Shown in pieces: positions 29,466-46,379 of a DNA stretch of 58,004 nucleotides (position 1 is its first letter; every line of letters starts with the position of its first letter). The notes beneath the pieces are model-generated. The model was not told the DNA's origin. It was given only the letters and a program-made list of their open reading frames with translations, and searched no databases. The translations under genes were made by a program, and so were the position numbers. The stretch covers positions 1-58,004 of the forward strand of contig JBNKLP010000007.1 of assembly GCA_050292425.1 (NCBI GenBank). Direction: 5' to 3'. Source of the stretch: Candidatus Nanoarchaeia archaeon (lineage in GTDB: Archaea; Nanobdellota; Nanobdellia; Woesearchaeales; UBA583).

Positions 29466-29510
29466 AGTAGAAATGAATTGGTTGGTTTATATAAAGGTTA
29501 TGTAGTGGAA

Positions 29511-30752
29511 TTAGAGTTTAATCTTTCCTTCTTTTCCACTAACGATGTTCTTTAGTGTGTATTTGCCTTCTTCTATGTCTTTCTTTCCTAAGATTGCAAT
29601 GTTGTCGCATCCCAAATACTGAGCATAGTCGAATGCCTTTTTTAGTTTGTAACCATAGTAAACTTCAGTTCTGAAGTCTTTTCTTAGTGTCTGAGCCAGT
29701 GTCTGAGCCTGAATTGCAAACTCTGCCTCTAATGGCACAACTAGTATTTGTGTAAGTCCTTCTTTTTCTGAGCCGTCTTTTAGGCATGCCATAATTGGAA
29801 CAAGTCCAAAGCTTACTCCTACTGCAGGTATTTCTTCATTAGAGGATGCATACTCGCCAATTACCTTATCATATCTTCCTCCTGACCCAAGAGATGATGT
29901 GATTTTCTCTTTTTTGTCATAGCTTTCCCAGATGTTTCCTGTGTAGATGTCAAGCCCTCTTGACATTGAGAAGTTGATTCTGAATTCAACTTTGAATTCT
30001 TTTAACATTGCAGTTAGTTTCTTCAACTCTTCAATACCTTCTTTTAGCAAGTCATCATTTGTTAATTTCTCAATTGCCTTGAAGTCTTTTGCCGATAAGG
30101 TTTCAATTGCTGCTTTTGCCTTTTTAATATCAAATCCTTTTTCTTTAATCTCATCTAAAACTCCTTTTTCTCCAATTTTCTTTAGCTTGTCAATAGAGAG
30201 AATAATTGAGGATAAGTCTTTTTGCTTGAAACCTTCTTGCAGAAGTGCTCCTCTAAGAATTTTGTTGTTGTTTATCTCAAGAATGGGAGTTATTCCAAGC
30301 TCCTTGTAAGTGTTGTAGAACATTGTTAGAAGTTCAGCTTCTATTTCAACTCCAGAGGTTCCAATCACATCACCATCACACTGAATGAATTCTCTTGCCC
30401 TTCCAGTCTTAATAGGACCATCCCTGAATACTTTTCCAATCTGATATCTCCTAAATGGTTTTTTTAATTTCTTGTTGTTTGCTGCAACATATCTTGAAAG
30501 AGGAGTTGTAAGGTCATATCTTAGACCTAGTTTTCTTTTCCCTCTGTCTGATAATTTGAATATCTCTTCAACAATTTCTGCATTCTTGTCATATTTGAGA
30601 GTCAGAGTCTCAAAATACTCAACAATTGGAGTGTCAAGCGGTCTGAAACCATAGCTCTCAAAATTTGCTCTAATAATGTCTAAAATTGCGTTAATTCTTA
30701 TTTGATCTTTAGGTTCACTATCTTGTGTTCCTTTTAGTACTTCGAATCTCAT
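29511..30752 (-). CDS. hisS: histidine--tRNA ligase
   Basis: KGTQD, LRYDLT, RYQIGKVFRD, REFIQCD, RGLDIYTG, GGRYD, C-terminal anticodon-binding domain. Confidence 0.96.
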   Translation of the reverse strand: MRFEVLKGTQDSEPKDQIRINAILDIIRANFESYGFRPLDTPIVEYFETLTLKYDKNAEIVEEIFKLSDRGKRKLGLRYDLTTPLSRYVAANNKKLKKPFRRYQIGKVFRDGPIKTGRAREFIQCDGDVIGTSGVEIEAELLTMFYNTYKELGITPILEINNNKILRGALLQEGFKQKDLSSIILSIDKLKKIGEKGVLDEIKEKGFDIKKAKAAIETLSAKDFKAIEKLTNDDLLKEGIEELKKLTAMLKEFKVEFRINFSMSRGLDIYTGNIWESYDKKEKITSSLGSGGRYDKVIGEYASSNEEIPAVGVSFGLVPIMACLKDGSEKEGLTQILVVPLEAEFAIQAQTLAQTLRKDFRTEVYYGYKLKKAFDYAQYLGCDNIAILGKKDIEEGKYTLKNIVSGKEGKIKL

Positions 30753-32074: not shown

Positions 32075-35000
32075 TTATTCTACCTTTACGTAGATGTATC
32101 TTGTCTGTTTGTCATCTCCATCGTTGATGGATAGTCTTGCAGGATACATTCCTGATTTAGTTCCTGATGCGATGAAGATAGGAACCTGAACTTCTCTTTC
32201 CATGTCTGCACCAATTGAGATTTCCTCATGATAGTTCAATTTCAACTCAGTACTCATAAGAGTAATTGAAATCTCCTTTGCTTCTTCTTCGTTATTCTCA
32301 ATTATAAATGAGATTGTGTTGTATCCTGGAATGATTTCCTGACTTAGAGCAGTGCTCATGTAATTAAGGATATCAGTTCCCTGTCCTCTAATTGATTGAA
32401 TCTTTCTTTGAGCAACTGGATATGAGAACATTACTGATTTTGTTACATCAATGTCTGTTCCATATGCATCTTGTACATTTAGTACAAACCTACAGTTTAC
32501 ATCTGTTGGGATTGTTGATGTGAAATCAAGTGTGTTAATGTCAAACCAGTATACAAATCCTTCTTCTCTTTCAACCTTGGATATAGCTCCATTAGGAATT
32601 GTACCATCATTTGCAAGGTTGATTCTTGCTGTTGCACCATCACAGGAGATTCTTGGTCTAAATTCAAGTACTCTTTCGTTTAGAGTCTCATTCATTACTG
32701 TAATACCAAATCTTACTTCTCCAGGTGTTACAACATCATCCAAAATGATGTCAACCAAGTCAAGTGTTAAATCAACTGTATTGTTTGTATCATTTTGTGA
32801 TACGAATAGTTGTTCTATTGTCTCAGATGCATTTGTTGTTCCATCAGTTGCTGTGAATACAAATACTCCAGTTCCTGTCAAATCATAATTTGTTACTTCA
32901 AATGTTCCAATACAAGGAACAACACTTGAGTTACCATTGATATCCAAAGTACAATCCATTGAAGTTAACAAAGGATGAGTTGCACTGAATTCGAAAGTCA
33001 AATTGTTAGGTACTGTAAAGTCTCCTGTAGCAGTTGACATAATGAAATAATCAATCTGAGGCCCATCAGCTGTTGTTACAACAGTAATTGGAACAAGATT
33101 GGAATTTACAATGTTTGTTCCATCAGTCACTCTTACAAAGGCATTGTAAAAGCCAATAGTGTAATTGTGAGTCAGCCCATCAATGTTTGAACAGTCATCC
33201 TGAGTGCTTTGACCATCACCATAGTAAATTGTACATGTAAGGTTGTCATTTTCAGGATCCTGAGCACTGAACTGAACTGTTGAAGTCAGATTCTCAATTC
33301 CAAATGTTGGTGTCATATTGAATAGAGTTACAACTGGAGCTTCGTTTACTGAAACAAAGTATCTGTCAATGCTTCTTAGTACTTGATGCTCACCATCATC
33401 TGCAATGATTGTGAATCTTGAGTTTCCTGCAATGTTAAAGTTGTCAATATTTTCAACACCATTTGCACAACCTACTGCCTGACTTACTCCATTTACTCTT
33501 AGAGTACATGTCATTGGAAAATTATCAGGATGAGTAACATCCCAAGTTAGTGTCAAGTTTGTTGGAATGTTATTTCCATTTGTTGAGTCAAGTGTGAAAT
33601 ATCCAATGTGAGGTGATGAGTATTCTCTTTCAAATACAAATACTTGTTCAACTACCTGAACTGGCTCGTTGGTACCATCTTCTACAATTAATACAGCATT
33701 GTATGTTCCAACGTTTGAGTATGTGTGTGCTACACCATTCAAATTGCTACATGAATCAGATGTCTGAGTTCCATCTCCAAATGTCAAAGTACAACTTAAA
33801 GAGTCTCCTTCAGCATCTGTTACATCAATTGCAAAGTTAGTTGCAAAAGGAGCATCACCATTATCTGGCTGAGCTTCAAATACATTTACAACTGGTGCTG
33901 TGTTGTCAACAAAGTGAATTGTGATTGAATCCTGAGCTGTAGCTCCAGAAGGATCTTCAACTCTTACCTGAACTACAGCATCATTTGGTGTACTTGTTGA
34001 TACATACAAGTATCCATTTACAATTACTGCATTTGCTGTTCCTGATGTTACTGAACTTGTTAGGCTTAAGGATGTGAACAAGTCATTGAAGTCTGTTACA
34101 TAGTTTGAAAGATCAACTTCAACTGTGTTTAGGTAATATTCAGTTAGTTCAGTAGGCAAGTCAATTAGAGGTGCTACATTATCTGCTGGCAGAGTGATGT
34201 AGATGTCTGAGTTTGATGCAATGTGAACAGTGTTTGAAACTGTTACATAATCAGCCTTTGATACAGTGTATGTGTATGTTCCTGCAATTACATCATTAAA
34301 ACTTACAGTTCCCAATGCGTTTGTTGCAAGGTTCTGATTGTATGAAGGAGCAGTCTGATAGTAATCATCTGCACTTAATAGTTGAAGATTGATGTTTGCA
34401 TTATCTACAACGTTTGAGTCAGAATCTCTTACAAAGAAATTTACTGAATAAGTTTCAGTTGCTAATATCTGCAAGTTTTGTGTCTGCTCAACATCTTCAA
34501 TAATATCACATCCATTGTCAACAGGTGTTGTGATTAATTTAACTTCATATGAACCTGCAGGAAGGTTTGTAATGAAAGGTGATAAATCTGCTCTGTATTC
34601 CTGAAGGTTGAAGTCTGATTGAAGAGTCCAACTCATTACCAACTGATTGTTAAAATACAAGTCTGCATTGAAATTCATAGGAGTGATAGACTCATCCCTG
34701 TATGCTCCTCCTCTAAATCCTCCATAAAGAGTTTCACCTTCTGAGATTTGAGCAATGCTTGTAGTTAGGTCGAATGTTTCTGTATTTGATAGAGTGAAAT
34801 CATATGCTCTTACCCAACATGCTCCATCTAAAGTAGCTGGATAGATTGTCTCAATTACTTCTGCATAGTCTGGAAGTGATGAGGATACCTGATTGTCAAT
34901 TACATCAGTGTCTACTCTGAATTTAATTGATTCATTTTCAAGTCCTGCATCTGGTGTCCATGAAAAAGCAGCAAGTCCTGCGCAAGTGTCAGCTTCAATT

Positions 35001-35701
35001 GGAATTGTTACCATCTCTGTTAGGTAAGTTTCTTGTGTGTTATCATTACTGATTCTTAGTTGAATTTGTGTGTTTGCACTAAAGTCTGAGTAACCTGTTG
35101 GAGGTGTTGCTCTCCACATGCTTGGCTGTGTAAATCTAAAAGCTGAACATACTGTCTCTTCAATTGATACTGGAATTTCAATTTGAACTGGAAGCAGTTC
35201 ATTGTCAATATTCTTAATGTTTAGCTGCTGGATTTCTGCATGTGCATTAGCTTTTTTCTCAAATGAGATTAAAATCGGAGTCTCATCAAAACAGATGTCA
35301 TATTCACATGTAAATCCTGTTGCTCTAAAGTATTCTGGAAGGTATGAATCTTCTGAGGGGAAAAATTCTGCAACATATCCAAATGTTGAAGGGATTTCCT
35401 GTCTTACAATTACTCCTGAGGATGTTGCAATGTTTCCTGATAGAGCGTAACCTGCCATACATGTATTGAATGCCTCTTGAGTTGTTCTATCTGTCCAACA
35501 GGATAGAGCCCCTCTATCATATAGCTGCATATCACCTGCAAGAGATGAACATTGTGAGTTTGAACATTCTCCTCCGTCAACAAACACGTTTGAAGGAGTT
35601 TGAACAGAGTATGCAAAATCGTATACTGTATAAAAATCAGCAGAGTACGCTGTAAATACAGATGCGAAAAGTGCAATTAATAGTATTAATAGTTTTTTCA
35701 T
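32075..35701 (-). CDS. large secreted Ig/PKD-repeat surface protein
   Basis: Signal peptide, acidic/Thr-rich, PKD motifs (LTFGDG..HTYSNVGTYNA; YYGDG..HNY), GTYTYTVSK domain, no C-terminal TM. Confidence 0.75.
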   Translation of the reverse strand: MKKLLILLIALFASVFTAYSADFYTVYDFAYSVQTPSNVFVDGGECSNSQCSSLAGDMQLYDRGALSCWTDRTTQEAFNTCMAGYALSGNIATSSGVIVRQEIPSTFGYVAEFFPSEDSYLPEYFRATGFTCEYDICFDETPILISFEKKANAHAEIQQLNIKNIDNELLPVQIEIPVSIEETVCSAFRFTQPSMWRATPPTGYSDFSANTQIQLRISNDNTQETYLTEMVTIPIEADTCAGLAAFSWTPDAGLENESIKFRVDTDVIDNQVSSSLPDYAEVIETIYPATLDGACWVRAYDFTLSNTETFDLTTSIAQISEGETLYGGFRGGAYRDESITPMNFNADLYFNNQLVMSWTLQSDFNLQEYRADLSPFITNLPAGSYEVKLITTPVDNGCDIIEDVEQTQNLQILATETYSVNFFVRDSDSNVVDNANINLQLLSADDYYQTAPSYNQNLATNALGTVSFNDVIAGTYTYTVSKADYVTVSNTVHIASNSDIYITLPADNVAPLIDLPTELTEYYLNTVEVDLSNYVTDFNDLFTSLSLTSSVTSGTANAVIVNGYLYVSTSTPNDAVVQVRVEDPSGATAQDSITIHFVDNTAPVVNVFEAQPDNGDAPFATNFAIDVTDAEGDSLSCTLTFGDGTQTSDSCSNLNGVAHTYSNVGTYNAVLIVEDGTNEPVQVVEQVFVFEREYSSPHIGYFTLDSTNGNNIPTNLTLTWDVTHPDNFPMTCTLRVNGVSQAVGCANGVENIDNFNIAGNSRFTIIADDGEHQVLRSIDRYFVSVNEAPVVTLFNMTPTFGIENLTSTVQFSAQDPENDNLTCTIYYGDGQSTQDDCSNIDGLTHNYTIGFYNAFVRVTDGTNIVNSNLVPITVVTTADGPQIDYFIMSTATGDFTVPNNLTFEFSATHPLLTSMDCTLDINGNSSVVPCIGTFEVTNYDLTGTGVFVFTATDGTTNASETIEQLFVSQNDTNNTVDLTLDLVDIILDDVVTPGEVRFGITVMNETLNERVLEFRPRISCDGATARINLANDGTIPNGAISKVEREEGFVYWFDINTLDFTSTIPTDVNCRFVLNVQDAYGTDIDVTKSVMFSYPVAQRKIQSIRGQGTDILNYMSTALSQEIIPGYNTISFIIENNEEEAKEISITLMSTELKLNYHEEISIGADMEREVQVPIFIASGTKSGMYPARLSINDGDDKQTRYIYVKVE

Positions 35702-35705
35702 TTTC

Positions 35706-36350
35706 TTATTGTACTAGGCTTCCTCCTGAACCTGTAGTGCTACCTGATCCCCAAGTAGAAGTTGATGAACTTGACTGTGATGTTGCATTGTGAGTAGAAC
35801 TTCCTGAAAGAAGACCAAGTAATATACCTAAGGAAACATATCTTCCTGTTTCTCTTTTAACTCCTGCTGCTGCCCAAGCATTTGCATCAGCTTCTACTTG
35901 TTGACCAGCATATTTAAGTGCTGCATATTTCATATTTGTTTTATGAAATCCATTTTCCATTAATGAATTTTTCACTACATCAGCCTTACAGTAATCATTC
36001 TCACAAAGAGTGTAATCTAATTTTACATTTTCTGGAACTAATTTTTCCAGACCAGTTCTGATATTTGAAATTTTACATACAGTATCTGCATCATTACATG
36101 CTGAATACTTTGAAGCATTTGCAAATGGAATTGAAAAAGTACCTGCCTCATACATCTTAAGAACATCTTCTGGAGAGAACCCTGCAAATGTTGAATTTGT
36201 TGATGTTCTCATCTCAGTTGCTTTTTTAACCATAGTTGTTGCAATAATTGCTGATGAATTCACATCATCCCTTATTTCATATTTTGCAACACATCCAGTC
36301 ATTAAAGCTGGGATTAATGCTGTTGCTAAAGCTTTTGTTCTTTTATTCAT
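35706..36350 (-). CDS. putative lipoprotein
   Basis: MNKRTK..ALIPALMTG|C lipobox; C-terminal hydrophobic SLGILLGLLSG followed by a Ser/Gly/Thr tail. Confidence 0.6.
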   Translation of the reverse strand: MNKRTKALATALIPALMTGCVAKYEIRDDVNSSAIIATTMVKKATEMRTSTNSTFAGFSPEDVLKMYEAGTFSIPFANASKYSACNDADTVCKISNIRTGLEKLVPENVKLDYTLCENDYCKADVVKNSLMENGFHKTNMKYAALKYAGQQVEADANAWAAAGVKRETGRYVSLGILLGLLSGSSTHNATSQSSSSTSTWGSGSTTGSGGSLVQ

Positions 36351-37600
36351 TCTTTAACACCTCCAATACCAAAAAAAGGTTGTGCAACATTTTCACCTGC
36401 TTGCCTGTTTCTTGAAACTTCTTGAGGAATTTCCTTAAGTACACATCTTCCTGCAATAGCAAGATTTCCAGTATTACATTTTTCTACAATTGCATTGTAG
36501 TTTGAACCTAGCAAATCATTTCCAGTTCCTGCTGTAAGCTGGTAAAATCTTGGCTCAACAAGTGGAGCAGGTATAGCTGCTGTCCAATTATTCTGCCAGA
36601 AATCAACATACTTGTTCTTTGCAATCTGTTTTAAAATTTCTGGATTGTTTTTTACATACTCTCTATCAATTGATGATTCAACTGAAAATTGACCTAAATT
36701 TGTCAAATATTCTGCTCTTTGTTCTGGAGTGTTCTGAGCCCCTGAAAGTTCTGTTGCAGAAGTTACTTGTGCATTTAGTAAAAATTCAAGTCCTGTTGTT
36801 AATTCAGGATGAAGTTCATCTAATGCTTCTGGAATGAAAAAAGCTTCTGTTCTTTCTCTTGCACTTAATTTTTCAAGTCCATAAATCTGTCTTGCAACTT
36901 CTTTCTCTGAGAATGTCTCATTGATTTCCTCTCCATTAACACTAAGCAATTTGTAAAGTCCTGAACCCATATTTTCATAAATTGCTAATTTTGCACTATT
37001 ATTAATTAATATAGGAGTTACAAGGTAGTTTCTGAAATCAGCAGGTTTTTTAGATTCAATTGACTTTTCAGCAGCTATTTTTCTATTATCTATAACTACT
37101 ATTCTATCTTGAGGTTTTTCAGGATTGTATACAATTACATCAATGTTATCTCCTTTTTTAGTTGGGTTGAAATTTTTATTTTTAATATTACCAATATTTT
37201 CAATTGGACCTCTATGAACTCTTTCTCCATTTACTAAAATATTTGCTTCAGAATAACTATTACCAACAATTTTCTTAACTAATTCTTCTAATCTATCTCC
37301 TTCATCATCTGATGGATACTTGAACTTGTTTCCAACTTTTCTTGAAGGACACCAGTCTCTCCCCATTACAGTTTCATTAGTTGCAAGTGGTTTACCTTCT
37401 TGAGTGCTAATTCTTACATTATCAGCATATAAACCATTAGGGTATTTTTTACATTTGTCTACTGCAGGCTTTGCAGGAGCAGGTCCAACATATGCAGGTG
37501 ATGCAGGATCATGTCTAGGATCTATAGCATAAGCTGAAGTTGCAAGAAGAGTTCCAGCTAAAATTGTTGCTAAAGCATTAATTGTTTTCATTCTTTCCAA
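36347..37600 (-). CDS. secreted hypothetical protein
   Basis: Signal peptide ending AYA, Pro/Ala linker, Cys pairs; overlaps both neighbours. Confidence 0.6.
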   Translation of the reverse strand: MERMKTINALATILAGTLLATSAYAIDPRHDPASPAYVGPAPAKPAVDKCKKYPNGLYADNVRISTQEGKPLATNETVMGRDWCPSRKVGNKFKYPSDDEGDRLEELVKKIVGNSYSEANILVNGERVHRGPIENIGNIKNKNFNPTKKGDNIDVIVYNPEKPQDRIVVIDNRKIAAEKSIESKKPADFRNYLVTPILINNSAKLAIYENMGSGLYKLLSVNGEEINETFSEKEVARQIYGLEKLSARERTEAFFIPEALDELHPELTTGLEFLLNAQVTSATELSGAQNTPEQRAEYLTNLGQFSVESSIDREYVKNNPEILKQIAKNKYVDFWQNNWTAAIPAPLVEPRFYQLTAGTGNDLLGSNYNAIVEKCNTGNLAIAGRCVLKEIPQEVSRNRQAGENVAQPFFGIGGVKE

Positions 37601-38445
37601 CCCCCTTTCTCCAATACCTGAGTGTGATACCCAGTAATATCTGAATTAGTTGGAAAACAGTTTGGCAATTCAATTTCCATTCTTGCATAAAGAGGAGCAT
37701 TTTCCCTCAGACTTTTTAGTTCACTTTTAGCTGAAAGATCTGATCTAACTTTAAAATAATCTTCTAAAGATAAATTCTGAGTCATACCACTATTGTAGCT
37801 TTTTGGAAATAAACATCTATTTGCATCAATACTCATTCCTTTGTAATTTCCGTCAAGACTTAGATAATTAAAAGTTACAATTTCTTCTCCTTTTTTAGTA
37901 GTTTTTCTATCTACACCAATTGAACCAGTTGCTTCTCTTCCTCCTAATCTTCTTCTTAAATCATCATATGAAGCTTCTCCATTTTTTAATAATAATTTAT
38001 TCAAATCATCTTTGTTTGGAAGAAGAGCTTCAGTTTCATTTGTTCTGTATCTAACATCAGATCCATCTCTTAAAGCACTTCCAGTCTGAACTTCTCCAAA
38101 TCCTCTATGTGGTTCGTCTGCATTGAATCCTCTATTGTATGCAACATATCCTCCAAATCCTCCTAAAAGTAAAAGAGCAGCAGCACCAAGACCACATACA
38201 ATGTTTTTTCTAGTGTGACTTCTTTCTAACTCTTCATTTTCACCCCTAAGTTTAACATTTTCATTTTGATTATTAGAATTTCTTCTGGACATAGATTGAT
38301 ATTCTTTATTTATTTTATTTAAATCCTCAACTTTTTCAGGATTATTTTCTCCAGCTTTTAACTTACCTATTCTCTCTTCAAATTCTGCAAATTCATCCTT
38401 TAAAATTGGTTCGAATCTGTCTTGTTTATGTCTATCTTCAGCCAT
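37588..38445 (-). CDS. single-pass membrane protein with N-terminal coiled coil
   Basis: Charged heptad N-terminus, TM GLGAAALLLLGGFGGYVAY, C-terminal domain with a Cys pair. Confidence 0.6.
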   Translation of the reverse strand: MAEDRHKQDRFEPILKDEFAEFEERIGKLKAGENNPEKVEDLNKINKEYQSMSRRNSNNQNENVKLRGENEELERSHTRKNIVCGLGAAALLLLGGFGGYVAYNRGFNADEPHRGFGEVQTGSALRDGSDVRYRTNETEALLPNKDDLNKLLLKNGEASYDDLRRRLGGREATGSIGVDRKTTKKGEEIVTFNYLSLDGNYKGMSIDANRCLFPKSYNSGMTQNLSLEDYFKVRSDLSAKSELKSLRENAPLYARMEIELPNCFPTNSDITGYHTQVLEKGGWKE

Positions 38446-38534
38446 TTTTTATAATATATTATAGTTTTAATCTATAGTAAACCTCCTATATTTATAAATG
38501 TTTTGATTTGTACACTACTGAAAAGTGAAGAAAA

Positions 38535-39686
38535 TTAAAGAGATTTCTTTGAATTTACAATTTTTTGATAAATATCATCTATTCTCTTTTTATAATTTCG
38601 TGTCTCTCCAATATTTAAATAATTTTGAGGTGTTCCTTTTTTTAAGTTCCTTTCTCCAGCGTTAAATGCCATTCTTGTATAGTCCATCTGAGTTTCAAGA
38701 GGTAAATTTCTATCAACATATTTCTCAAAGATATCTCGGGAATATTGATGTCCTGCAGCAAGATTTTTTTCAGGAATAAATATGTCCTCAGCACTCAAAC
38801 CATATCTTTTACCAGTATCAACAATTATCTGCATCAATCCTCCTGCTCCAGCTGAAGATTTAACATAAGGATTTCCTTGTGATTCCGTTGCAACTTGCGC
38901 TAAATCAGATTCAAAAAGATATTTTCCTTCTTCAGTATAACCATTATCAATTAAAAAATTATTTCCATTTGTTACTATCTCCAAATATCTTAAACAACTA
39001 TTTCCTGAACATTCTAACTCATTTAATCTTCCTACTGTTCTTCTAAGTCTGCTTGCATTATCTGAATCATCATTTTCTAAGATCAAATATTGATATTTTT
39101 GAGGAAGTCTTGCTTTTAGCAAAGCGATTTGATCTTGAGGAGACAAATATTTCTTATTTTTCATTAAACCTAAAAATGAAACTGAAGATAATCTATCTGG
39201 CAATTCTCTTTTATTTGTTGTTTTGGAAACTTTACCAACAGCTGACTGAGTTCTTGCTTTATTCAATTGTATTGTTAAAGTTGTAATTTGTTTTTCAAGT
39301 TCTGATATTTGACTTTCAGTAAATTCAAGTTCTTCCGAAATTAAATTATTTTCGTGATATAAATCCTCATTTACTTGTTGAGCTTCGTTTGCTCTTATAG
39401 TTTGAACTGCCAAATCAGTTTTATCTTTCCATTGAATAACTGAGGCTCCAAGAATAATTGTTGCTGCAGTTGCCAAATATGCATTACTAGGTATTCTAGT
39501 AAGTAATTGAGGAATTGAAATAACTCCTATCCCTAGTTTTCCTAAAAGAGTATTATTGACACCAAAAGTTCTTCTAACTTCAGATTTTCTTTCTCTTTCT
39601 TTTATAAATTCATCAATTCTATAATTAACATAAAGACTATATAAATCAAATTTTTCTTTGGCAAAATTAACTAATGGATTATTCAT
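38535..39686 (-). CDS. membrane-anchored lytic transglycosylase (SLT/GH23 domain)
   Basis: Catalytic ES (ATESQGNP), SSAGAGGLMQI, PEKNLAAG..Y, AFNAG, ETRNY; N-terminal TM and coiled-coil stalk. Confidence 0.88.
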   Translation of the reverse strand: MNNPLVNFAKEKFDLYSLYVNYRIDEFIKERERKSEVRRTFGVNNTLLGKLGIGVISIPQLLTRIPSNAYLATAATIILGASVIQWKDKTDLAVQTIRANEAQQVNEDLYHENNLISEELEFTESQISELEKQITTLTIQLNKARTQSAVGKVSKTTNKRELPDRLSSVSFLGLMKNKKYLSPQDQIALLKARLPQKYQYLILENDDSDNASRLRRTVGRLNELECSGNSCLRYLEIVTNGNNFLIDNGYTEEGKYLFESDLAQVATESQGNPYVKSSAGAGGLMQIIVDTGKRYGLSAEDIFIPEKNLAAGHQYSRDIFEKYVDRNLPLETQMDYTRMAFNAGERNLKKGTPQNYLNIGETRNYKKRIDDIYQKIVNSKKSL

Positions 39687-39755
39687 ACTTATTAATTAGT
39701 ATTATTTGATTATTTATAAAAATTACTAAATTTGTTTATTTTAGTAGTAACAAAA

Positions 39756-40859
39756 TCAAGCATTGTATTGATTGAAATAATTGTTTAATTCACCATATAC
39801 TAAACCATTCCATTCCTCAGGTTTTTTTCCATTAACAGAATTAATTAATTGAGGGATAAATTGATTAAATCCTGTGGAATTAGCAAGAATAGAATTTATT
39901 TTTGTTGTAAAAATAGCATCATTAGAATTAATCTTATTCATAATAAAACCAAAAATAATCTGTATAAAATAATTCTCAATATTTGTATCGGCTTGTGTTC
40001 TTCCTCTACCCATTCTTATCAACATTCTATAATAATAATCATTTACTGAATTTGCAATTAAATTTCTGATTCTTTGCTCAAGTTCTGAATTTGAAAGTTG
40101 AGACTGCTGAGAAGTTGGTTGTTGTGGATTTTGAACACCATTTTTTTCTTTAATTAAAAAGTAACTATTGAAATACTTCTGAGCCTCTGTTGTTCCAGAT
40201 AAATTATATTTTTTAAAATAATTTAAAGATAACTCTAAAAAAATTCTAAGTTCAGGAAACTCTTTTTGTACATTTCCATCAGGAGTTTTTTGAATCACAA
40301 TTGCATCAGTCTTAATATCTTTAGAATTTTCTTGCATAATCGTTAATATATCATTAATAATATCTAACTCCTTATTCCAAGTTTCTAATTCACCCTTCAT
40401 TTTTTGATTCATCTCAACTTTTACTTGCTCAGAATCAAAATCTCTTGATGAATTTACTATAGTAGAAAGTTGAGCATCATATGTATTGTGCTTTATTTTC
40501 ATATAAGTACTAAGTTCATCTTTTAGATTTTTAGGTAAAGTTTTATCTTTGATTTCTTTTTCTAATTTATCTATATTTACTGCTAATTCATCTTGATTCT
40601 TGTATTCATACTCTAAATCCATTGCAACTTTTGAGATTGATTTTTGTTTTAATTGAGATATTAAACCACTTCTTACTTGTTCTTTTTGAACATCAAGAGG
40701 AGTATTTATATCTTCATTACAAAGAGTTATGATTTGTGAGCAAAGTTGTTGAATTGCAAGGGCTTCTGTCTCAGTATTTGCTTTTTTAGAAACTTCAATT
40801 AATTTAGTTGCAAATTGAATAATTTGACTATTATAGGCTTTTATTTGTTCAGAGTTCAT
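39756..40859 (-). CDS. hypothetical alpha-helical protein
   Basis: Gln/Asn-rich helical ORF, ATGA overlap with the upstream membrane protein. Confidence 0.6.
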   Translation of the reverse strand: MNSEQIKAYNSQIIQFATKLIEVSKKANTETEALAIQQLCSQIITLCNEDINTPLDVQKEQVRSGLISQLKQKSISKVAMDLEYEYKNQDELAVNIDKLEKEIKDKTLPKNLKDELSTYMKIKHNTYDAQLSTIVNSSRDFDSEQVKVEMNQKMKGELETWNKELDIINDILTIMQENSKDIKTDAIVIQKTPDGNVQKEFPELRIFLELSLNYFKKYNLSGTTEAQKYFNSYFLIKEKNGVQNPQQPTSQQSQLSNSELEQRIRNLIANSVNDYYYRMLIRMGRGRTQADTNIENYFIQIIFGFIMNKINSNDAIFTTKINSILANSTGFNQFIPQLINSVNGKKPEEWNGLVYGELNNYFNQYNA

Positions 40860-41641
40860 TTTGCCTTCTCCTCTCTTAATTTAGTGTAAATACTCGTAAT
40901 ACTATCAGCTAGTTGCTCTTGTGCTTTTTTAAATTCATTATTTTCTTTTTTTGCAGTCCTTCTCTTTTTCAAACTATTTAGTACTGAACCATCTGTATTC
41001 TGCATATCACTTACTTTTTTACCTGCTTTAAATCCAACAATAAACAGAATTAGTCCTGTTATTATTCCAAGTATTCCAAATGAAACAACCCAATTTAATA
41101 TTGCAAAAATTGCAGAATTTTCATCAAAAATACTAGACCCATTTTCAATAAAAGTTATAAGAGTTGTACCTACAAAAAAAGATGCCAAACTCATAAAAAG
41201 AAGCCAAGTAGGCTTTCTGAATCTTCTTCCATCTTCTCCAACTAATAGAGCATCTAGTCCTTTTAATCCTCCAAATAAAACTATGGCAATTAAAAAAAAA
41301 CCAATTGTACCTCCAAACGTAACAATTAATTGATCAATACCATCTTTTGAATACATATAGAAAATTCCTGAAGTCCCTATGAAAGAAATTGCAAATGACA
41401 TAACATTTCTTTCTTTTGTATTATTTCTAAATACAAATCTAAGACCTACTTTAACCAATGCATTGAATCCAAGAAGCATTGCAATAAACATTAATGATGC
41501 AACAGTAAAGTTGTTAGACAATAATCCATAAACACCACTATCTCCTAGCAAATCAGTAAAAGGTTTCTTGAAATCAGCTGCAAAAGTTGTCTGCAAAGAT
41601 GTTAGAATGATTGCAAAAGGTAATAATAGTCTTTTTAACAT
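40856..41641 (-). CDS. polytopic membrane protein (paralogue of 45471-46379)
   Basis: Signal-like N-terminus, about 5 TM helices, LMFIA / IGTSGIFYMY / FGGTIGFFLI, basic helical tail. Confidence 0.7.
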   Translation of the reverse strand: MLKRLLLPFAIILTSLQTTFAADFKKPFTDLLGDSGVYGLLSNNFTVASLMFIAMLLGFNALVKVGLRFVFRNNTKERNVMSFAISFIGTSGIFYMYSKDGIDQLIVTFGGTIGFFLIAIVLFGGLKGLDALLVGEDGRRFRKPTWLLFMSLASFFVGTTLITFIENGSSIFDENSAIFAILNWVVSFGILGIITGLILFIVGFKAGKKVSDMQNTDGSVLNSLKKRRTAKKENNEFKKAQEQLADSITSIYTKLREEKAK

Positions 41642-41693
41642 AAATTTCTGTTATAAATTGAATTTATAAATTTTTGTGGTTGCTGAGCAGGAG

Positions 41694-43754
41694 TTATTTA
41701 CGTTCAGGAGGAAAAGAACCAGATCTAATCTCAAATCCTCTTTCAGTTAAGAAACTGCTCTCATTACCAGCAATAGATTTTGATGAACTATCATCATTTA
41801 AATTTTCACTTAAACTATCAATAGTTCTCATTAAAGAAGTTAATTTATTTATATCAAAATTACTAAACTCATAATGATTTTTATTTAATGTCATTATCTC
41901 AGAGAATATGTTTGAAATTAAAGTAAATTTTCCTTTTATTTGAGAATAATTGTTATCATCTAAATTTTCATTCAACCATTTAATAAATTTTAGAGAACCT
42001 TTTATTAAACTAATACTTTGTAGAGAAAAAGGGTTATGATTTGGATCCCTTTCTATTAATGCTTTCCAATTTTTTAAGAAAGTAACTAATTTAGAATATC
42101 TTTTTGGAACCTTATTTTTATTATCAAATAAATTCTGAAAAATTTTTCCTACTCCTTGTTTTGTAGATGGTTTTGTTGGATCTAGAGCAAGTTCAATTTC
42201 ATGCAAGTGTTTTCTAAAAGTATTTTCTAATTTTTCAATTTCATATTTTAGTTCTTCCACACCAATAAAATTGCCACTAGAAATTCCTTTTAAATTACTT
42301 TTTGCCCTTTCAAGTTCATCCTCCAATCTAACTATTGCCTCTTTTCCAAAATATTTTTTGAATTCCTGAAAGTCACCTTTCCAATTTAAATTAATTGATT
42401 GAACATAAGTTTCTGAAATGCCAGTAATAGAAGCCACATTAATCTTGTCTTTACAAATGTTTGCCAAATCCTCAATTTGATCAGAATTAAATTTTTGCAG
42501 ACTTTCTTTATTAACAAATAAAATTTTATTATTTACATATTCCCATACTTGTTTACATCTCTCAAAGTTAGGCAGTCCAAGATAAATTTTTTGAAGTCTA
42601 CCATCTCTTGTCAGTGCATCATCAAATTCACTTTTCTCAAGATTGGTAGCAAGACAAACAATTATCCCCGGATATCTAGAACGATTAATGAAACTTTTCA
42701 TAGCTTCAACTCCTTGCGCTCTCCATCCTGAATCACCTCCAGAACCTGAAGTTTTTTTTAATAAATCTGTTGCTTCATCTATGTAAACAAAACAAGGAAC
42801 TCTATACCTTTTCACCAAACTGATTGCTGGACCAAAAATCTTTTTAGAAACATTTGTTGCAAGACCTCCAACATATTGATTTGAAAGCATATCCCCAATT
42901 TCCTGAAAATGAGTTTTAAATCCTAATTCATTATATATTTCCATAAGAGATGCCTGTATAAGATGAGTTTTACCTGTTCCAGGTGGTCCATACAGAACAA
43001 TTCCATTTTGTGAAGGCTGTTTTCCATTTAAATAATCTTTAATACAAGAATAAATCTCTAATAAATCTCTAGTATTAGTTGAACCATTTTTAAAATCTTC
43101 TTTCAAAAACATCTTATCTAATAATTCTTCTATAATTTTTCTTTTTTCATTAGAAATTTTAGGAATATTTAGAGTAATATTACTTATATCATCAAGAGAT
43201 AAAATGTCTTCCTCTTCTGGATTTAAATAGCCTCTTTGATTCGAAGTTGGTAAAATCAATGTAGGACTAATTCTTTCATCCACATAAAGAATAGAAAAAT
43301 TAAGTTTCTCACTAGTTTTCTTATTATCTCTTCTTGCATCCCTAATTTCTTCAATTGTGATCTTTGAATTTATTTTATTATAACTTGAAAATGCATAATA
43401 CATTATCTTTTCTAAAATCGGATGGGTTATTTTTGCTTGCTGCGGATTTTGTTCATCTGGTATTTGTCGGAATAAAGAATTATCTAGATAAAGAGTATAA
43501 AAATCAGCAACTTTTCCCTTCACTTTTTGTATTGGAATTTGAAAAGTGTCATTACTAATTAAAGAAACGATTGCGTCTAAATGAATAAATATTCTCCAAC
43601 CAACAATTTCTTTTTCATTATATCTCAATGATTCAATTTTTGGCTCTATTTTGAAGGTTCCTGATCCTAAAGCCATATAATACACAGGACTTAAACCTGT
43701 TTTTTCATTAACTGGCACTTCTTTTAAAGAAGAAGTTTCAGGATAACCCTCCAT
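41694..43754 (-). CDS. classical-clade AAA+ ATPase with unique N- and C-terminal domains
   Basis: GIVLYGPPGTGKT, pore loop QYVG, VYIDEA, sensor-1 LATN, SRH FDDALTRDGRL. Confidence 0.88.
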   Translation of the reverse strand: MEGYPETSSLKEVPVNEKTGLSPVYYMALGSGTFKIEPKIESLRYNEKEIVGWRIFIHLDAIVSLISNDTFQIPIQKVKGKVADFYTLYLDNSLFRQIPDEQNPQQAKITHPILEKIMYYAFSSYNKINSKITIEEIRDARRDNKKTSEKLNFSILYVDERISPTLILPTSNQRGYLNPEEEDILSLDDISNITLNIPKISNEKRKIIEELLDKMFLKEDFKNGSTNTRDLLEIYSCIKDYLNGKQPSQNGIVLYGPPGTGKTHLIQASLMEIYNELGFKTHFQEIGDMLSNQYVGGLATNVSKKIFGPAISLVKRYRVPCFVYIDEATDLLKKTSGSGGDSGWRAQGVEAMKSFINRSRYPGIIVCLATNLEKSEFDDALTRDGRLQKIYLGLPNFERCKQVWEYVNNKILFVNKESLQKFNSDQIEDLANICKDKINVASITGISETYVQSINLNWKGDFQEFKKYFGKEAIVRLEDELERAKSNLKGISSGNFIGVEELKYEIEKLENTFRKHLHEIELALDPTKPSTKQGVGKIFQNLFDNKNKVPKRYSKLVTFLKNWKALIERDPNHNPFSLQSISLIKGSLKFIKWLNENLDDNNYSQIKGKFTLISNIFSEIMTLNKNHYEFSNFDINKLTSLMRTIDSLSENLNDDSSSKSIAGNESSFLTERGFEIRSGSFPPERK

Positions 43755-43759
43755 TTTTA

Positions 43760-45469
43760 TTAGATATTAAATATTTGTTTCAAACTCGATAAAAATTCTT
43801 CATATCTTGAAAAATTCTCTGCAGAAATTGAAGGAGTTGAAGAGACTTTTGCAAATGAGATTACATCTTCAGCAAGTTTTTGTATATTTGCATTAATTTC
43901 ATTGAATTTCTTTGCATTTCTTGCCTTTGCAACTAATTTTCTAAAACTATCGTAATCATGTTCTGATTTATTAAATAAAAGAAGATAAAGGTTTGACATT
44001 AAATTAGAAGCCCTATCAAAATTATGAGTCTGAATTTCTGCTCCAATTTGAATTATTAATGACTTTATATTTTTTTTAATTTCATCAATATCTTTTATTG
44101 AACTTGAAGAACTCTCTTCTTCCTCGAAATTCTTGAACAATGATTTATTATCTTTCATTATTGATTTAAATTTATCATTATTTTCCCAAGGTTCTTCTCC
44201 TTCAAGAGCATCTTCAATTTCTCTAATTAAGTATTTAGCTAAAGATTTGTTGTCCTCATTCTCAAAGAATTTTTTATCCAATTGTGAAATTTTTATACTC
44301 TCTCCATCATCTTTAACAAGCTCAACATTTTTGAATCCTCCAGAACCAATTCTAAAATGATATTTTTTATTAATTGTAGACTGTAATTCCTGGGCTAATT
44401 TATCAAAGCCTTCTTTTAATTCGCTCAGCCCACTATCAACTTTTGTAATTTTCGAAGCTAATTCCTTAATTTCCTTCTCATTTCCATCTTTATCTTTGAA
44501 TCTGACTCCTGTAAATAATTCTGTTAATACTCTTTTGAGGAATTCGTCTAAATTATTATTTTCATTTGCATCTGAATATGATTTACCTGAACCATAATTG
44601 TTGCTCTCCCAGTTTAGTTTTTCCAAAAATTTATTTAGTTCTGCTAAGAGAGCTTTTCCTCTTCCTGCATTACCATAAAAAAAATGATTTAAGAATTTTT
44701 TGAAGCCTAGTTTGAAATCATTAAATCCTCCTAAATTGTAAGAATAAGTCTTTTTATATGTTGAAAAATCCACATTCATTGCTGCTTGAACCAAACCATC
44801 TGACCAATCCTGAATTACTCCTTCTGATTGTCTAATGTAATTGTCTAAATATTTAAGTCCTGAGACTAAAGATGTGAATACCGTTTCTTTGTTTGCAGTT
44901 TCCTGAATTAAATAATAAATTTGAGCATAGTATTGAGCAAAATAGTTTGCAGAGTTAATAAAGTGAGATTTATTAGCAGTATTTATATTATCTTCAATAC
45001 CCAATGCACTCTGCTGTAATTTTACTATTTCTGGCGCACTTGCTTGAATCGAGGCCCTTAATGAGTATTCCTTGCTGTTGTATTCAAGGCAAAGCTGTTC
45101 AAATTGTTTTAAAGCATGAATCTCTTCAGTGTGAATTGTTTTGAAAAAATCAGTAGTTTTCTTTTGTTCTTCATCAAGATGTTCAACCAACTTTTGTAAA
45201 TCTTCAATCAAAGGAGTAATGGAAGTTCTTAGTCTTTGATAAACATCCCTCAAATCTTTTGAAAATTTCTCCTGTCCAAAAGAGAACATTTTATTTTTTA
45301 ATTCAATAGCACTTACTCCATCTTTTTCATTTAATGCTTTAAGATAATCATGAGCAGATTGAAAAAAAGCTCTTTCTTTTCTATTTTCAGAAATATATTT
45401 TTGAAACATCTCAGCAAGTTGTTTTAGTTTCATACCAGAACCTGTTTCATTTCCAATTTCAATTGTCAT
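43760..45469 (-). CDS. hypothetical coiled-coil/helical protein
   Basis: Long helical ORF; ATG 45469 lies 1 nt after the upstream stop and is preceded by GGAGGGGG. Confidence 0.65.
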   Translation of the reverse strand: MTIEIGNETGSGMKLKQLAEMFQKYISENRKERAFFQSAHDYLKALNEKDGVSAIELKNKMFSFGQEKFSKDLRDVYQRLRTSITPLIEDLQKLVEHLDEEQKKTTDFFKTIHTEEIHALKQFEQLCLEYNSKEYSLRASIQASAPEIVKLQQSALGIEDNINTANKSHFINSANYFAQYYAQIYYLIQETANKETVFTSLVSGLKYLDNYIRQSEGVIQDWSDGLVQAAMNVDFSTYKKTYSYNLGGFNDFKLGFKKFLNHFFYGNAGRGKALLAELNKFLEKLNWESNNYGSGKSYSDANENNNLDEFLKRVLTELFTGVRFKDKDGNEKEIKELASKITKVDSGLSELKEGFDKLAQELQSTINKKYHFRIGSGGFKNVELVKDDGESIKISQLDKKFFENEDNKSLAKYLIREIEDALEGEEPWENNDKFKSIMKDNKSLFKNFEEEESSSSSIKDIDEIKKNIKSLIIQIGAEIQTHNFDRASNLMSNLYLLLFNKSEHDYDSFRKLVAKARNAKKFNEINANIQKLAEDVISFAKVSSTPSISAENFSRYEEFLSSLKQIFNI

Positions 45470-45470
45470 T

Positions 45471-46379
45471 TTAATTACCCCCTCCATTAATTATTTTTTG
45501 CATATCTTTCAAGATTTTCACTTTATCGTCTGCTGCTTCATTTGCCTCTTTTAAGGAGTTGACAAAATTCTTGACATAACTTTTTATTTGAGAGATATTG
45601 TTGTCAGATTCTTCATCCTCTTTTGTATAATCAGATTCTTCCTCTTTTTCCTCCTTATTTTTCTTCATCTTCTTGATGATTCCCCAGATTCCAAAACCAA
45701 TAGCAATTACTATAACATATGGGATTAAATATGCAAAGAAATTGTAAACTTTTGCATAAAGCCAAGTTCCTTGCTGTGAATTACAACTAATTGAATCCAC
45801 CCAAGCATCAGGGTCTGGAATAGAATGACAATTTAAACCTCCAAGAACAGTTCCTGTATACCCAATCATTAAATATGAAGAAACAAGAACTCCCAAAACA
45901 ACTAAAAAAACCCACATAGGTCCTTTACCAAAAATACCTGTCTCATCTTTAGAACTTTCAGCAAAGTTGTACATGAACTTCATAACAAATACTACAAAGA
46001 AGAGAATCAGAAAATAACCAACTCCTCCTCCAAAGATGTAAATGAAAGTGTCTGGATGACTTCTGTACATAAAGAAAATTCCCAAAGTACCAATTACTGA
46101 GAGCATCATAGAAATTACAGTAATGGGCTTTCGAGTGAATCCTGAATGAGATTTGAATGCAAGTTTTAGAAGAGATTGAAACATTGAAAATGTTCCCATA
46201 AATGTTGCAATGAACATTAAGGCAAATACCACATCTGCATTTTCAAGAAGAGAAGTTATTCCTGCACCAACTTCTTTAAGCCCTCTTAGAACAGGACCAT
46301 CTGCTCCATAAGCACCAGTTAAAAACAAGAAAAAACTGGAAAGCAACAATCCCAGCTTTAGTCTAAATGCATTTTTCAT
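45471..46379 (-). CDS. polytopic membrane protein (paralogue of 40856-41641)
   Basis: Signal-like N-terminus, LMFIA / IGTLGIFFMY / FGGGVGYFLI, charged helical tail. Confidence 0.7.
   Translation of the reverse strand: MKNAFRLKLGLLLSSFFLFLTGAYGADGPVLRGLKEVGAGITSLLENADVVFALMFIATFMGTFSMFQSLLKLAFKSHSGFTRKPITVISMMLSVIGTLGIFFMYRSHPDTFIYIFGGGVGYFLILFFVVFVMKFMYNFAESSKDETGIFGKGPMWVFLVVLGVLVSSYLMIGYTGTVLGGLNCHSIPDPDAWVDSISCNSQQGTWLYAKVYNFFAYLIPYVIVIAIGFGIWGIIKKMKKNKEEKEEESDYTKEDEESDNNISQIKSYVKNFVNSLKEANEAADDKVKILKDMQKIINGGGN

Follow-up and report, generated by a model that had tools for sequence, protein, structure and literature searches.

The SLT383 gene raises the question of why an archaeon would encode an enzyme of a type directed at murein. 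The gene lies in a 58,004-nucleotide stretch of DNA (the window) from Candidatus Nanoarchaeia archaeon, and a sequence-only reading had described its product as an intact lytic transglycosylase carried on a membrane-anchored stalk and displayed outward. The evidence gathered here somewhat favours SLT383 being a surface-anchored, murein-directed, predicted lytic transglycosylase, which was added to a conserved gene module in this lineage.

The gene itself appears sound. Its coordinates are the exact bounds of an ATG-started ORF of 383 aa in the ORF list, the reading frame is intact across all 383 codons, and the Pfam SLT match together with the AlphaFold match to MltF bears out the description of an intact lytic transglycosylase gene (features of the gene and its surroundings are given in Table 1). 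The archaeal host was likewise borne out, as the window carries genes for TBP, aIF2-gamma, an XPD-type helicase, a Rad50-like protein and NFACT, with archaeal genes on both sides of the SLT383 locus and the gene itself in mid-contig. SLT domains are typically bacterial or phage-borne, and the best labelled matches of this one are phage and plasmid proteins at 31–41% identity, as would be the case if misassembly or binning had attached a bacterial or phage gene to archaeal DNA. Such an artefact is exceedingly unlikely, however. Contig-level depth, which had been expected to be uniform in a genuine contig, is flat at 7.0–11.4 over 30–50 kb, an independent assembly of run X1 yielded overlapping contigs of even depth that tile the same 30–50 kb (one of them spanning 38538–40001), and a second sample contains pieces of the locus at at least 99% identity. 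The GC content of 29.3% fits the genome, and the tetranucleotide usage of the locus resembles that of the genome to an ordinary degree (r 0.979, 21st percentile). Synteny of the flanking module extends to congeneric archaea, and SLT domains above the cut-off occur in 122 of the 201 genomes of the order and 13 of the 20 of the genus. Markers, depth and composition thus give no sign of chimerism in the contig. A joint from 32651 to 45157 in a Logan contig was dismissed as a chance or repeat match, having only 20 letters on a side.

Table 1. Coordinates of SLT383, its parts and the neighbouring module genes in the window.
Feature	Position	Strand	Basis
SLT383, whole ORF, 383 aa and stop codon	38535..39686	-	ORF list, Pfam SLT, AlphaFold2
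N-terminal helix, residues 4-42	39561..39677	-	AlphaFold helix, pLDDT 66-82; coordinates checked
Weak hydrophobic stretch 1, residues 45-62, contains Lys and Pro	39501..39554	-	Kyte-Doolittle
Weak hydrophobic stretch 2, residues 69-86, candidate membrane anchor	39429..39482	-	Hydropathy
Helical stalk, residues 87-149	39240..39428	-	AlphaFold helix 67-149, heptad scan
Linker, residues 150-220, mostly low confidence	39027..39239	-	pLDDT <50 at 151-173, 199-223
Lytic transglycosylase (GH23, family 1) catalytic domain, residues 221-383	38538..39026	-	VIA-align, Foldseek, profile
Codon of Glu268, predicted catalytic acid, ES motif	38883..38885	-	Alignment, codon check
Codon of Phe341, in the place of the AYNAG Tyr	38664..38666	-	Alignments, codon check
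mem302, signal peptide and ~5 TM helices, first gene of module	45471..46379	-	Hydropathy
sol575, soluble, no known family, core module gene	43760..45487	-	No family match
AAA686, AAA+ ATPase, unique N- and C-terminal domains, core	41694..43754	-	Pfam AAA, 52.6 bits
mem261, signal peptide and ~5 TM helices, core module gene	40856..41641	-	Hydropathy, paralogy
sol367, soluble helical protein, first gene of fast-diverging arm	39756..40859	-	No family match
tm285, bitopic, charged N-terminus, TM helix at residues 82-100	37588..38445	-	Hydropathy 1.83
sec417, signal-peptide-like N-terminus, no known family	36347..37600	-	N-terminus
lipo214, lipoprotein-like N-terminus, hydrophobic stretch ending Gly-Cys	35706..36350	-	N-terminus
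PKD1208, giant secreted PKD-domain protein, closes module	32075..35701	-	Pfam PKD, tblastn synteny

By its sequence and modelled structure, SLT383 is a real protein of the lytic-transglycosylase fold, of the family-1 GH23/SLT type. Pfam SLT (PF01464) matches residues 265–352 with an E-value of 9.6e-13 and 48.2 bits, against a gathering cut-off of 21.3, and a six-frame search of the genome with the same model gave the gene 50.5 bits. A profile of an alignment of 61 sequences (SLT383 and 60 relatives) matches Slt70 at E 8e-32. The AlphaFold2 model has a mean pLDDT of 73.9 over the whole protein and exceeds 90 over most of residues 260–350, and a lysozyme-like, all-helical catalytic fold is predicted by AlphaFold, Foldseek and VIA-align together. 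Foldseek returned a probability of 1.00 for Slt, Slt70, MltE, MltC, MltD and MltF, whilst in VIA-align MltF was matched with Z 17.6 (rmsd 2.7 Å over 149 residues, model range 221–381), followed by MltC (Z 16.4), MltE (15.2) and Slt70 (15.1). The top structural matches are solely lytic transglycosylases and g-type lysozymes. The NCBIfam equivalog models all score far below their cut-offs (MltD, for example, 27.7 against 508).

The motifs, with codons checked, lie at residues 266–269 (ATES, containing Glu268), 283–286 (GLMQ), 340–344 (AFNAG) and 361–365 (ETRNY), where the family consensus is given as ES-GLMQ-AYNAG in passages of PMC8517470. All of the GH23/SLT motifs had been claimed from the sequence; ES, GLMQ and ETRNY stood, but the third motif reads AFNAG and not AYNAG. 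Glu268 is shared by 60/60 aligned relatives, in a column that aligns with the ES of Slt70, and SLT383 keeps all nine of the positions that are invariant in the alignment (E268, S269, S277, A281, G283, Q286, T291, N342 and G344), in addition to the conserved E361, T362 and Y365. The Asn, Ala and Gly of the third motif are also kept. Its Tyr, on the other hand, is present in all 60 other rows of the alignment and in all 178 other domains that have a residue there (149 of them environmental representatives, the other 29 labelled as archaeal, phage or plasmid), leaving the Phe of SLT383 unique among 179. At position 289, where 57 of the 60 other rows have Pro, SLT383 has Val.

Because of the Tyr-to-Phe and Pro-to-Val changes, an altered function has to be considered, in which SLT383 would be a weak enzyme, would only bind glycan, or would act on another beta-1,4-GlcNAc polymer, such as chitin-like, archaeal or its own glycans. 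The uniqueness of Phe341 is consistent with this, as are the chito-oligosaccharides in solved members of the family, which according to the titles of the structure entries are chitopentaose in MltE, chitotriose in Cj0843 and chitotetraose in MltD. The fold also recurs in g-type lysozymes and in a GH124 cellulase (VIA-align Z ~12), and cultivated DPANN archaea are described as episymbionts of archaea in the abstract of PMC8204110. An altered function is nevertheless unlikely, given that SLT383 departs from this murein-specific family at no other conserved position, the catalytic Glu and the ExxxY motif being intact, that a change of Tyr to Phe retains the aromatic ring, and that a muramoyl-alanine amidase domain encoded elsewhere in the genome points to murein.

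How the domain is presented depends on the N-terminal part of the protein, which can be read less firmly. Residues 1–44 contain nine Lys and Arg residues, and the N-terminal helix is presumed to be cytoplasmic. No canonical signal peptide was seen in SLT383, judged by its N-terminus and hydropathy. A transmembrane segment had been claimed, and two short hydrophobic stretches are indeed present, but no 19-residue window reaches the classical Kyte-Doolittle threshold of 1.6; the second stretch (residues 69–86) peaks at 1.3 over 19 residues and at 1.9 over 15. In the AlphaFold model the first stretch has a pLDDT <50 and no helix, whereas a single continuous helix begins with the second stretch and runs from 67 to 149. 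Heptad periodicity is clear over residues ~107–147, and weak, sub-threshold matches to coiled-coil-type Pfam models cover residues 88–170. The coiled coil of ~50 residues that had been proposed is therefore a fair description, with a stalk of ~40–60 residues supported by the helix and the heptads. Two N-glycosylation sequons are present, of which only Asn210 lies beyond the anchor.

The predicted outward topology is likely only, because both hydrophobic stretches fail the hydropathy threshold. With a weak anchor, a second such stretch and positive charges on both outer flanks (the 6-residue loop between the stretches has just one Arg), a cytoplasm-facing hairpin is possible. SLT383 could by extension be a protein with a hairpin or with no membrane segment at all, facing the cytoplasm, or a recently acquired insert that is functionless or in decay. 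The sub-threshold hydropathy and the charges would agree with this, as would the two departures from near-invariant positions, the absence of any full-length relative among 1.84 billion representatives and the absence of a counterpart from 19 congeners. This is a decidedly unlikely explanation, though, given the intact frame, the well-formed domain predicted with pLDDT >90, the retention of 9/9 invariant columns, a composition that matches the genome, and the lack of a helix over residues 45–62. A murein enzyme inside the cell would, moreover, have no conceivable substrate.

The gene content of the genome bears on what the substrate could be. No murein polymerase, transpeptidase or SEDS protein (PF00912, PF00905, PF01098) was matched in the 90.3%-complete genome, whilst the same search gave matches in 10 of 14 control genomes. 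The host is, judged by its genes, a small-genome DPANN-type archaeon without sign of murein-making capacity. Two further SLT proteins are encoded in the genome, both with clear export signals, one of 512 aa with a twin-arginine-like signal (C31) and one of 339 aa with an N-terminal TM helix (C4). Among SLT ORFs inspected from related genomes, 14 of 16 have a strongly hydrophobic segment within the first ~140 residues. The amidase domain mentioned above (Amidase_2, 76.7 bits) represents a second type of murein hydrolase in the genome, in which no LysM, PG_binding_1, NlpC/P60 or M23 partners were found. As the murein genes searched for were not found in the 90.3%-complete genome, and as this genome and its relatives encode SLT proteins with signs of export, an outward-facing, murein-directed role for SLT383 is the most economical reading.

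Under this outward-facing, murein-directed reading, the Lys/Arg-rich N-terminal helix would stay in the cytoplasm and the weakly hydrophobic stretch at residues 69–86 would hold the protein in the membrane. The heptad helix of ~60 residues and the flexible linker, as seen in the predicted structure, would then hold the catalytic domain off the cell surface, where it would bind, and probably cleave, the MurNAc-GlcNAc backbone of bacterial peptidoglycan via Glu268. The bacteria targeted may be hosts, prey or neighbours. The earlier proposal of an outward enzyme attacking bacterial walls thus holds as regards the fold, the archaeal host and the missing murein synthesis genes, but the topology is ambiguous. 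Its further suggestion, that wall material is scavenged, was not upheld, and an anhydro-muropeptide scavenging pathway was rejected, as no AnmK was found in the genome.

That such proteins serve to attack bacterial walls is already published for Woesearchaeota/Pacearchaeota and is not new. Passages of PMC8204110 and PMC9723730 (Vigneron et al., 2022) ascribe to the SLT/GH23 proteins of these archaea a role in bacterial wall attachment or degradation, and cite Rinke 2013 and Castelle 2015 as the first to have noted SLT proteins in DPANN. The large extracellular SLT proteins of fam00969 (Castelle et al., 2021) are similar to SLT383 in placing an SLT domain in a small-genome DPANN archaeon, but reach up to ~3,000 aa (passages of PMC8204110), whereas SLT383 is 383 aa long and without a full-length relative. 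Haloarchaeal peptidoglycan hydrolases were found to be lethal to bacteria (Strock et al., 2025, PMC12352652), and these, like SLT383, are archaeal enzymes of a kind directed at a polymer exclusive to bacteria. The enzymes tested there were haloarchaeal; in passages of that paper the Woesearchaeota transglycosylases are cited as a further hint, and no assay of an SLT-type archaeal enzyme is described in them. If active and outward-facing, SLT383 would be a small, easily expressed candidate for testing a long-standing idea, that bacteria and not archaea are what some DPANN attach to or feed on, and its domain of 163 residues, in which an invariant motif naturally carries Phe in place of Tyr, would make a convenient object for assay.

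The catalytic domain shares its fold and the ES, GLMQ and ExxxY motifs with the bacterial family-1 enzymes Slt70, MltC, MltE, MltF and MltD. It differs from these in its archaeal host, whose genome yielded no genes for murein synthesis, in having AFNAG and not AYNAG, and in following a helix, a weak anchor and a stalk instead of a signal peptide, lipobox or superhelical domain. In an exhaustive HMMER search of 1.84 billion representatives no full-length relative was found; all 870 matches at E <=1e-3 lie on residues ~205–383, with the exception of P0058. This sole match to the linker is a low-complexity tandem-repeat sequence with a repeat-inflated score and was judged spurious. A word-indexed search with SLT383 gave three non-self matches, to the SLT domain only.

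A phylogeny against bacterial and phage SLTs had been suggested as a check, and a quick tree was built from 50 domains (that of SLT383, 23 from archaea, 6 from phages or plasmids and 20 from unlabelled environmental sequences), without L026, which duplicates L009, and without L003, in which the domain match is too short. In this poorly resolved tree, with 29 of 47 forks open and four well supported, the SLT383 domain is on a long branch with unlabelled sequences, apart from the 23 archaeal domains, which come from the same order. One of the plasmid matches adjoins a type IV secretion gene. A phage or mobile-element origin of the locus was also considered and rejected, as no integrase, tRNA or phage genes are present and the locus is syntenic in congeners. 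PHROGs matches in the neighbourhood are limited to the SLT domain and a generic AAA domain. This chromosomal, syntenic setting is not that of a phage endolysin or a signal-anchor-release endolysin; in the latter, a weakly hydrophobic segment directly precedes the catalytic domain, whereas in SLT383 ~135 residues lie between them.

The more interesting lead is the genomic context, an AAA+/membrane module in which the outward-facing genes of different species have diverged beyond recognition. SLT383 is the sixth of ten tightly packed genes on the same strand (32075–46379, with gaps of -17 to 89 nt), and tblastn revealed synteny of this module in the five congeners examined, between glycogen genes and NFACT. 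mem302 and mem261 are paralogous, and mem302 was found in 7 of 19 congeners. The ortholog of AAA686 in congener G002 is 50% identical, and the NCBIfam model nearest to AAA686 itself is CdvC (56 bits, far below the cut-off of 650). sol575 has 29% identity to its positional counterpart in G002, but a search of the 200 other genomes in the order did not recover it, and among wider genome contigs none of 343 pattern matches was confirmed. At the other end, PKD1208 is kept in congeners at 34–50% identity, and similar lipoprotein-like genes occur at the position of lipo214. The counterparts of sol367 in congeners are interrelated (E 4e-7 and 7e-13) and barely related to sol367 itself (E 0.42). The C-terminal domain of tm285 (~185 aa) gave a single-sequence AlphaFold model too poor to read (pLDDT 44.5).

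No SLT was found among the 25 variable-arm proteins of the five congener modules examined, and PHROGs gave only collagen-repeat matches on 24 such proteins. Gene order and similarity within the genus indicate that SLT383 is a lineage-specific addition to the fast-diverging arm of an envelope module that is conserved in the genus. What is specific here, as far as the sequence comparisons reach, is the combination of no full-length relative, a fast-diverging module arm and the absence of SLT from the modules of five congeners. Outside the genus, a profile of the membrane proteins matched 24/201 genomes, mostly with partial, weak matches. Loci in G035 and G037 were rejected as the same module, having only a loose membrane-soluble-membrane likeness and no AAA gene.

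This context may mean that SLT383 is coupled to an apparatus, as a component or cargo of the AAA+/membrane module that would open the bacterial wall locally at contact. Its place in a string that also encodes a paralogous pair of polytopic membrane proteins, an AAA+ ATPase, proteins that are bitopic or secreted and a giant PKD protein is consistent with this, as is the synteny of the module core in congeners. Cargo of dedicated secretion systems often has no canonical signal peptide, and in this SLT383 is similar to much of it. The NCBIfam model for a flagellar-assembly transglycosylase also gives a weak match to SLT383 (E 1.3e-5). In its fullest form, the proposal is that 32075–46379 encodes an undescribed DPANN envelope apparatus, with a conserved core of motor and membrane parts (the paralogous pair of 5-TM proteins, the AAA+ ATPase and a soluble partner), and with a rapidly diversifying, outward-facing arm that would exchange tools between species and end in the giant, adhesin-like PKD protein. 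SLT383 would then be an exchangeable wall-opening tool of this species only. This proposal is put forward tentatively; if true, SLT383 would link the apparatus to bacterial contact. The module could provide a handle on how these uncultured cells engage their partners.

VirB1-type transglycosylases belong to type IV secretion. With these trans-envelope enzymes, and with the flagellar BB0259 of Borrelia, SLT383 shares the setting of a short SLT protein among membrane and ATPase genes, and BB0259 likewise has a unique N-terminal part and a C-terminal SLT domain (passages of PMC8517470). Unlike the VirB1 type, however, the SLT383 module has no recognised secretion, pilus or flagellar component, and, unlike with VirB1 and BB0259, the wall opened by SLT383 would be that of another organism. 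Searches of the module proteins against Pfam, NCBIfam, PHROGs and PADLOC brought up no family of secretion, pilus or conjugation (the AAA match being generic), and PADLOC gave nothing meaningful. Neither sol575, sol367 nor sec417 has a Pfam, NCBIfam or PHROGs match, and the ESM Atlas held no usable match for sol575 or sec417. Profiles of the sol575 and mem302/mem261 families against PDB sequences returned noise (syntaxin at E 0.07; GPCR/cytochrome b562 chimeras).

A coupling of SLT383 to the module is accordingly possible but doubtful, as its proteins match no known secretion, pilus or conjugation family or PDB profile, as all five of the congener modules examined do without an SLT, and as a TATA-like box hints, weakly, at separate transcription. 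This box lies ~27–36 nt upstream of the SLT383 ATG, in AT-rich DNA, and may be the gene's own promoter.

The open reading frame SLT383 (383 codons, ATG start, exact bounds) encodes an SLT/GH23 lytic transglycosylase-type protein, as the sequence-only reading had proposed, evidenced through its predicted fold and a Pfam match to SLT (PF01464) over residues 265–352 (E 9.6e-13; 48.2 bits against a cut-off of 21.3). In PHROGs, it is likewise the SLT part that is hit, by families of lytic tail proteins and of endolysins (best E 4.4e-17); NCBIfam adds weak matches to MltD, MltF, MltC and the flagellar transglycosylase of Borrelia, all scoring far short of the equivalog cut-offs. An AlphaFold2 model was built from A1, an alignment of SLT383 with 60 of its best HMMER matches, and has a mean pLDDT of 73.9, exceeding 90 over most of residues 260–350. 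Its top Foldseek ranks are lytic transglycosylases only, with a probability of 1.00 each for Slt, Slt70, Cj0843, LtgA, MltE, MltC, MltD and MltF. The best VIA-align match is MltF (Z 17.6, rmsd 2.7 Å over 149 residues, model range 221–381), followed by MltC (16.4), MltE (15.2), Slt70 (15.1) and then g-type lysozymes at around 12. These structural matches, together with the aligned range, place the catalytic domain of the model at residues 221–383.

The observation made from the sequence is real, but it requires two corrections, the first of which concerns the motifs, all described as intact. This holds for ES and the other conserved columns, with E268, S269, S277, A281, G283, Q286, T291, N342 and G344 invariant in A1, and with the A1 profile matching Slt70 at E 8e-32 with the ES, GLMQ, AYNAG and ETR-Y columns in register. 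The third motif, however, is AFNAG, with Phe where the family consensus, given as ES-GLMQ-AYNAG in excerpted text of PMC8517470, has Tyr; the aromatic ring is kept and the hydroxyl lost. Tyr occupies this column in 60 of 60 other A1 rows and in all 178 other domains with a residue there (149 of them environmental representatives, the remaining 29 labelled domains from archaea, phages and plasmids). At position 289, SLT383 has Val, against Pro in 57 of the 60 A1 relatives.

Searched exhaustively with HMMER, a set of 1.84 billion representatives yielded 870 proteins matching SLT383 at E 1e-3 or better. Among the matches listed, the non-self ones fall on residues ∼205–383, with the sole exception of P0058, which is a low-complexity tandem repeat and was rejected as an N-terminal relative; the first ∼200 residues thus have no relative detectable by the searches used. 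The predicted layout of this part is a helix at 4–42, an unstructured stretch at 43–66, a long single helix at 67–149 and a low-confidence linker at 150–220. Heptad periodicity is clear over ∼107–147, which upholds the coiled coil proposed ahead of the SLT domain.

The second correction concerns the transmembrane segment, which is present only in the form of two short and weak hydrophobic stretches, at 45–62 (containing Lys and Pro) and 69–86. The Kyte-Doolittle maximum over 19-residue windows is 1.3, with none reaching 1.6, compared with 1.83 for the clear helix of the neighboring tm285. Lys and Arg are abundant ahead of the first stretch, and three such residues directly follow the second. 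Were both stretches to span the membrane, the SLT domain would lie inside the cell; the continuous helix 67–149 suggests instead that only 69–86 does so, with the domain outside. The outside position is moderately favored, in part because other SLT proteins, in the same genome and in relatives, are clearly exported. Of 16 SLT ORFs examined in relatives, 14 have a strong hydrophobic segment (≥1.6) within the first ∼140 residues, a count that includes one place listed twice.

A chimeric assembly is a very unlikely explanation for such a gene in an archaeon. Contigs assembled independently from sequencing run X1 tile 30–50 kb, their contig-level depth staying even at 7.0–11.4, and one covers 38538–40001. 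Pieces of the locus recur in a second sample at ≥99% identity, the 35–45 kb chunk is ordinary in its tetranucleotide usage (r 0.979, in the 21st percentile among 181 chunks), and the whole neighborhood is syntenic in congeners. One X1 contig hints at a joint 32651/45157 skipping 12,505 bases, with only 20 matching letters per side and loose ends on both; it probably results from chance or from a repeat. The window carries archaeal-type genes for TBP, aIF2-gamma, an XPD-type helicase, a Rad50-like ATPase and NFACT, and the genome comprises 1.23 Mb in 133 contigs (0.3% contamination, 31.4% GC).

The part of the finding worth a follow-up is the module around SLT383, the sixth of ten same-strand genes spaced −17 to 89 nt apart (see table). 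The fetched congener loci, L042–L047 among those compared, keep the order glycogen synthase, debranching enzyme, mem, sol, AAA, mem, an interval of ∼5–7 kb, PKD giant and NFACT, and genes 1–4, which form the core, and the PKD protein are recognizably conserved. Seven of 19 congeners, and none of 21 genomes from other families, contain relatives of mem302, and the AAA686 N-domain has a match of 48% identity in congener G002. Genes 5–9 had no match at E 0.01 or better in the modules of five congeners. The congener arms nevertheless keep positional types (in order: soluble, 343–392 aa; anchored; signal-peptide, 436–521 aa; lipoprotein-like, 187–232 aa), and the position-5 proteins of congeners are mutually related (E 4e-7 and 7e-13). 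Since none of the 25 variable-arm proteins of the five congeners carries an SLT domain, the comparison suggests that this domain is peculiar to the species, an addition to the fast-diverging, putatively outward-facing arm of an otherwise conserved module. Searches of Pfam, NCBIfam, PHROGs and PADLOC, and profiles against PDB sequences, linked none of the module proteins to a known secretion, pilus, conjugation or defence family. In congener G001, the arm holds transposase and collagen-repeat genes, indicating that foreign DNA does enter it. The glycogen genes directly upstream hold the same place in G001 and G002. A TATA-like run, tttttataaata, precedes the SLT383 start codon by ∼27–36 nt and is compatible with an own promoter and leaderless mRNA, such runs being frequent by chance at 29% GC.

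Features of the module, its surroundings and murein-related genes elsewhere (window coordinates unless a contig or locus is named)
Feature	Location	Strand	Description
Module	32075–46379	−	Ten genes, genus-conserved
mem302		−	Gene 1; signal peptide, ∼5 TM helices
sol575		−	Gene 2; soluble
AAA686		−	Gene 3; AAA+ ATPase
mem261		−	Gene 4; signal peptide, ∼5 TM helices; paralog of mem302
sol367		−	Gene 5
SLT383	38535–39686	−	Gene 6
tm285, sec417, lipo214		−	Genes 7–9, in that order
PKD protein		−	Gene 10; 1208 aa, closes module
TATA-like run	39712–39723	−	
Glycogen genes	46438–51504		GDE_C debranching-type enzyme, glycogen synthase, GT4
HisRS, aIF2-gamma	28251–30752		Adjacent
CNNM + CBS + CorC_HlyC	51953–53200	−	
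C-terminal domain, ∼185 aa	53290–53868, 14104–14682	−	Also C1, C8, C12, C18, C20, C24, C25, C34, C35
Second SLT protein	C31:3115–3423 (L002 337–1875)		512 aa, twin-arginine-like signal
Third SLT protein	C4:64413–64577 (L003 961–1980)		339 aa, N-terminal TM helix
Amidase_2	C14:8761–9075		N-acetylmuramoyl-L-alanine amidase type, 76.7 bits
G011 SLT genes	L063 3161–5476, 5486–6748 (G011:C1, ∼888–892 kb)		771 and 420 aa
G001 arm genes	L047 14135–14977, 15180–16190 (G001:C7)		Collagen triple-helix-repeat lipoprotein-like protein, DDE transposase

The genome encodes two further SLT proteins and an Amidase_2 ORF of ∼200 aa with no visible signal peptide; a genome-wide search for AnmK, NlpC/P60, M23, LysM and PG_binding_1 found none. 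In this 90.3% complete genome there were no matches to transpeptidase, SEDS or murein glycosyltransferase, with 10 of 14 controls positive, and the one Mur-ligase-type match belongs to a kind shared by archaeal controls. The complete congener genome G011 has two paralogous SLT genes, the second with a lipoprotein-like signal, whose insertion separates HisRS from aIF2-gamma at a distance of a few kb from the counterpart of the module; SLT383 resembles them only remotely.

Of 201 genomes sampled from the order, 122 have SLT domains above the Pfam cut-off, as do 13 of 20 from the genus, both counts including the genome of SLT383. SLT genes as such are already known in these archaea, whilst the architecture of SLT383 is distinct from known members. 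Display toward bacterial walls, as first suggested, agrees with the export of the other SLT proteins and with the null results for murein synthesis, but less well with an anchor below 1.6; an enzyme against bacterial walls is plausible but unproven. This reading is the standard one: excerpts of Castelle et al. (2021; PMC8204110), as well as of Vigneron et al. (2022; PMC9723730), already propose that with SLT proteins Woesearchaeota and Pacearchaeota can attach to bacterial walls or break them down, and a portion of Strock et al. (2025; PMC12352652) touches on the idea. The closest labelled relatives are phage and plasmid SLTs (31–41% identity over 26–33% of the query), and SLTs from archaea within the order come no nearer (27–37% over full-domain alignments). 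A quick tree of 50 domains left 29 of 47 forks open and placed the SLT383 domain, on a long branch, among environmental sequences without labels.

The giant surface proteins have a common C-terminal domain in at least 12 places of the genome (33–85% identity), several copies lying at contig ends; this domain could serve all of them as a module for anchoring or sorting. Proteins of the CNNM/CorC type, to which the Pfam domains of another gene in the window belong, are divalent-cation transporters, and a toxin label for that gene therefore deserves caution; it may be of the kind reported as the pore-forming toxin gene 'tlyC' in papers on DPANN archaea (PMC9723730, in part).
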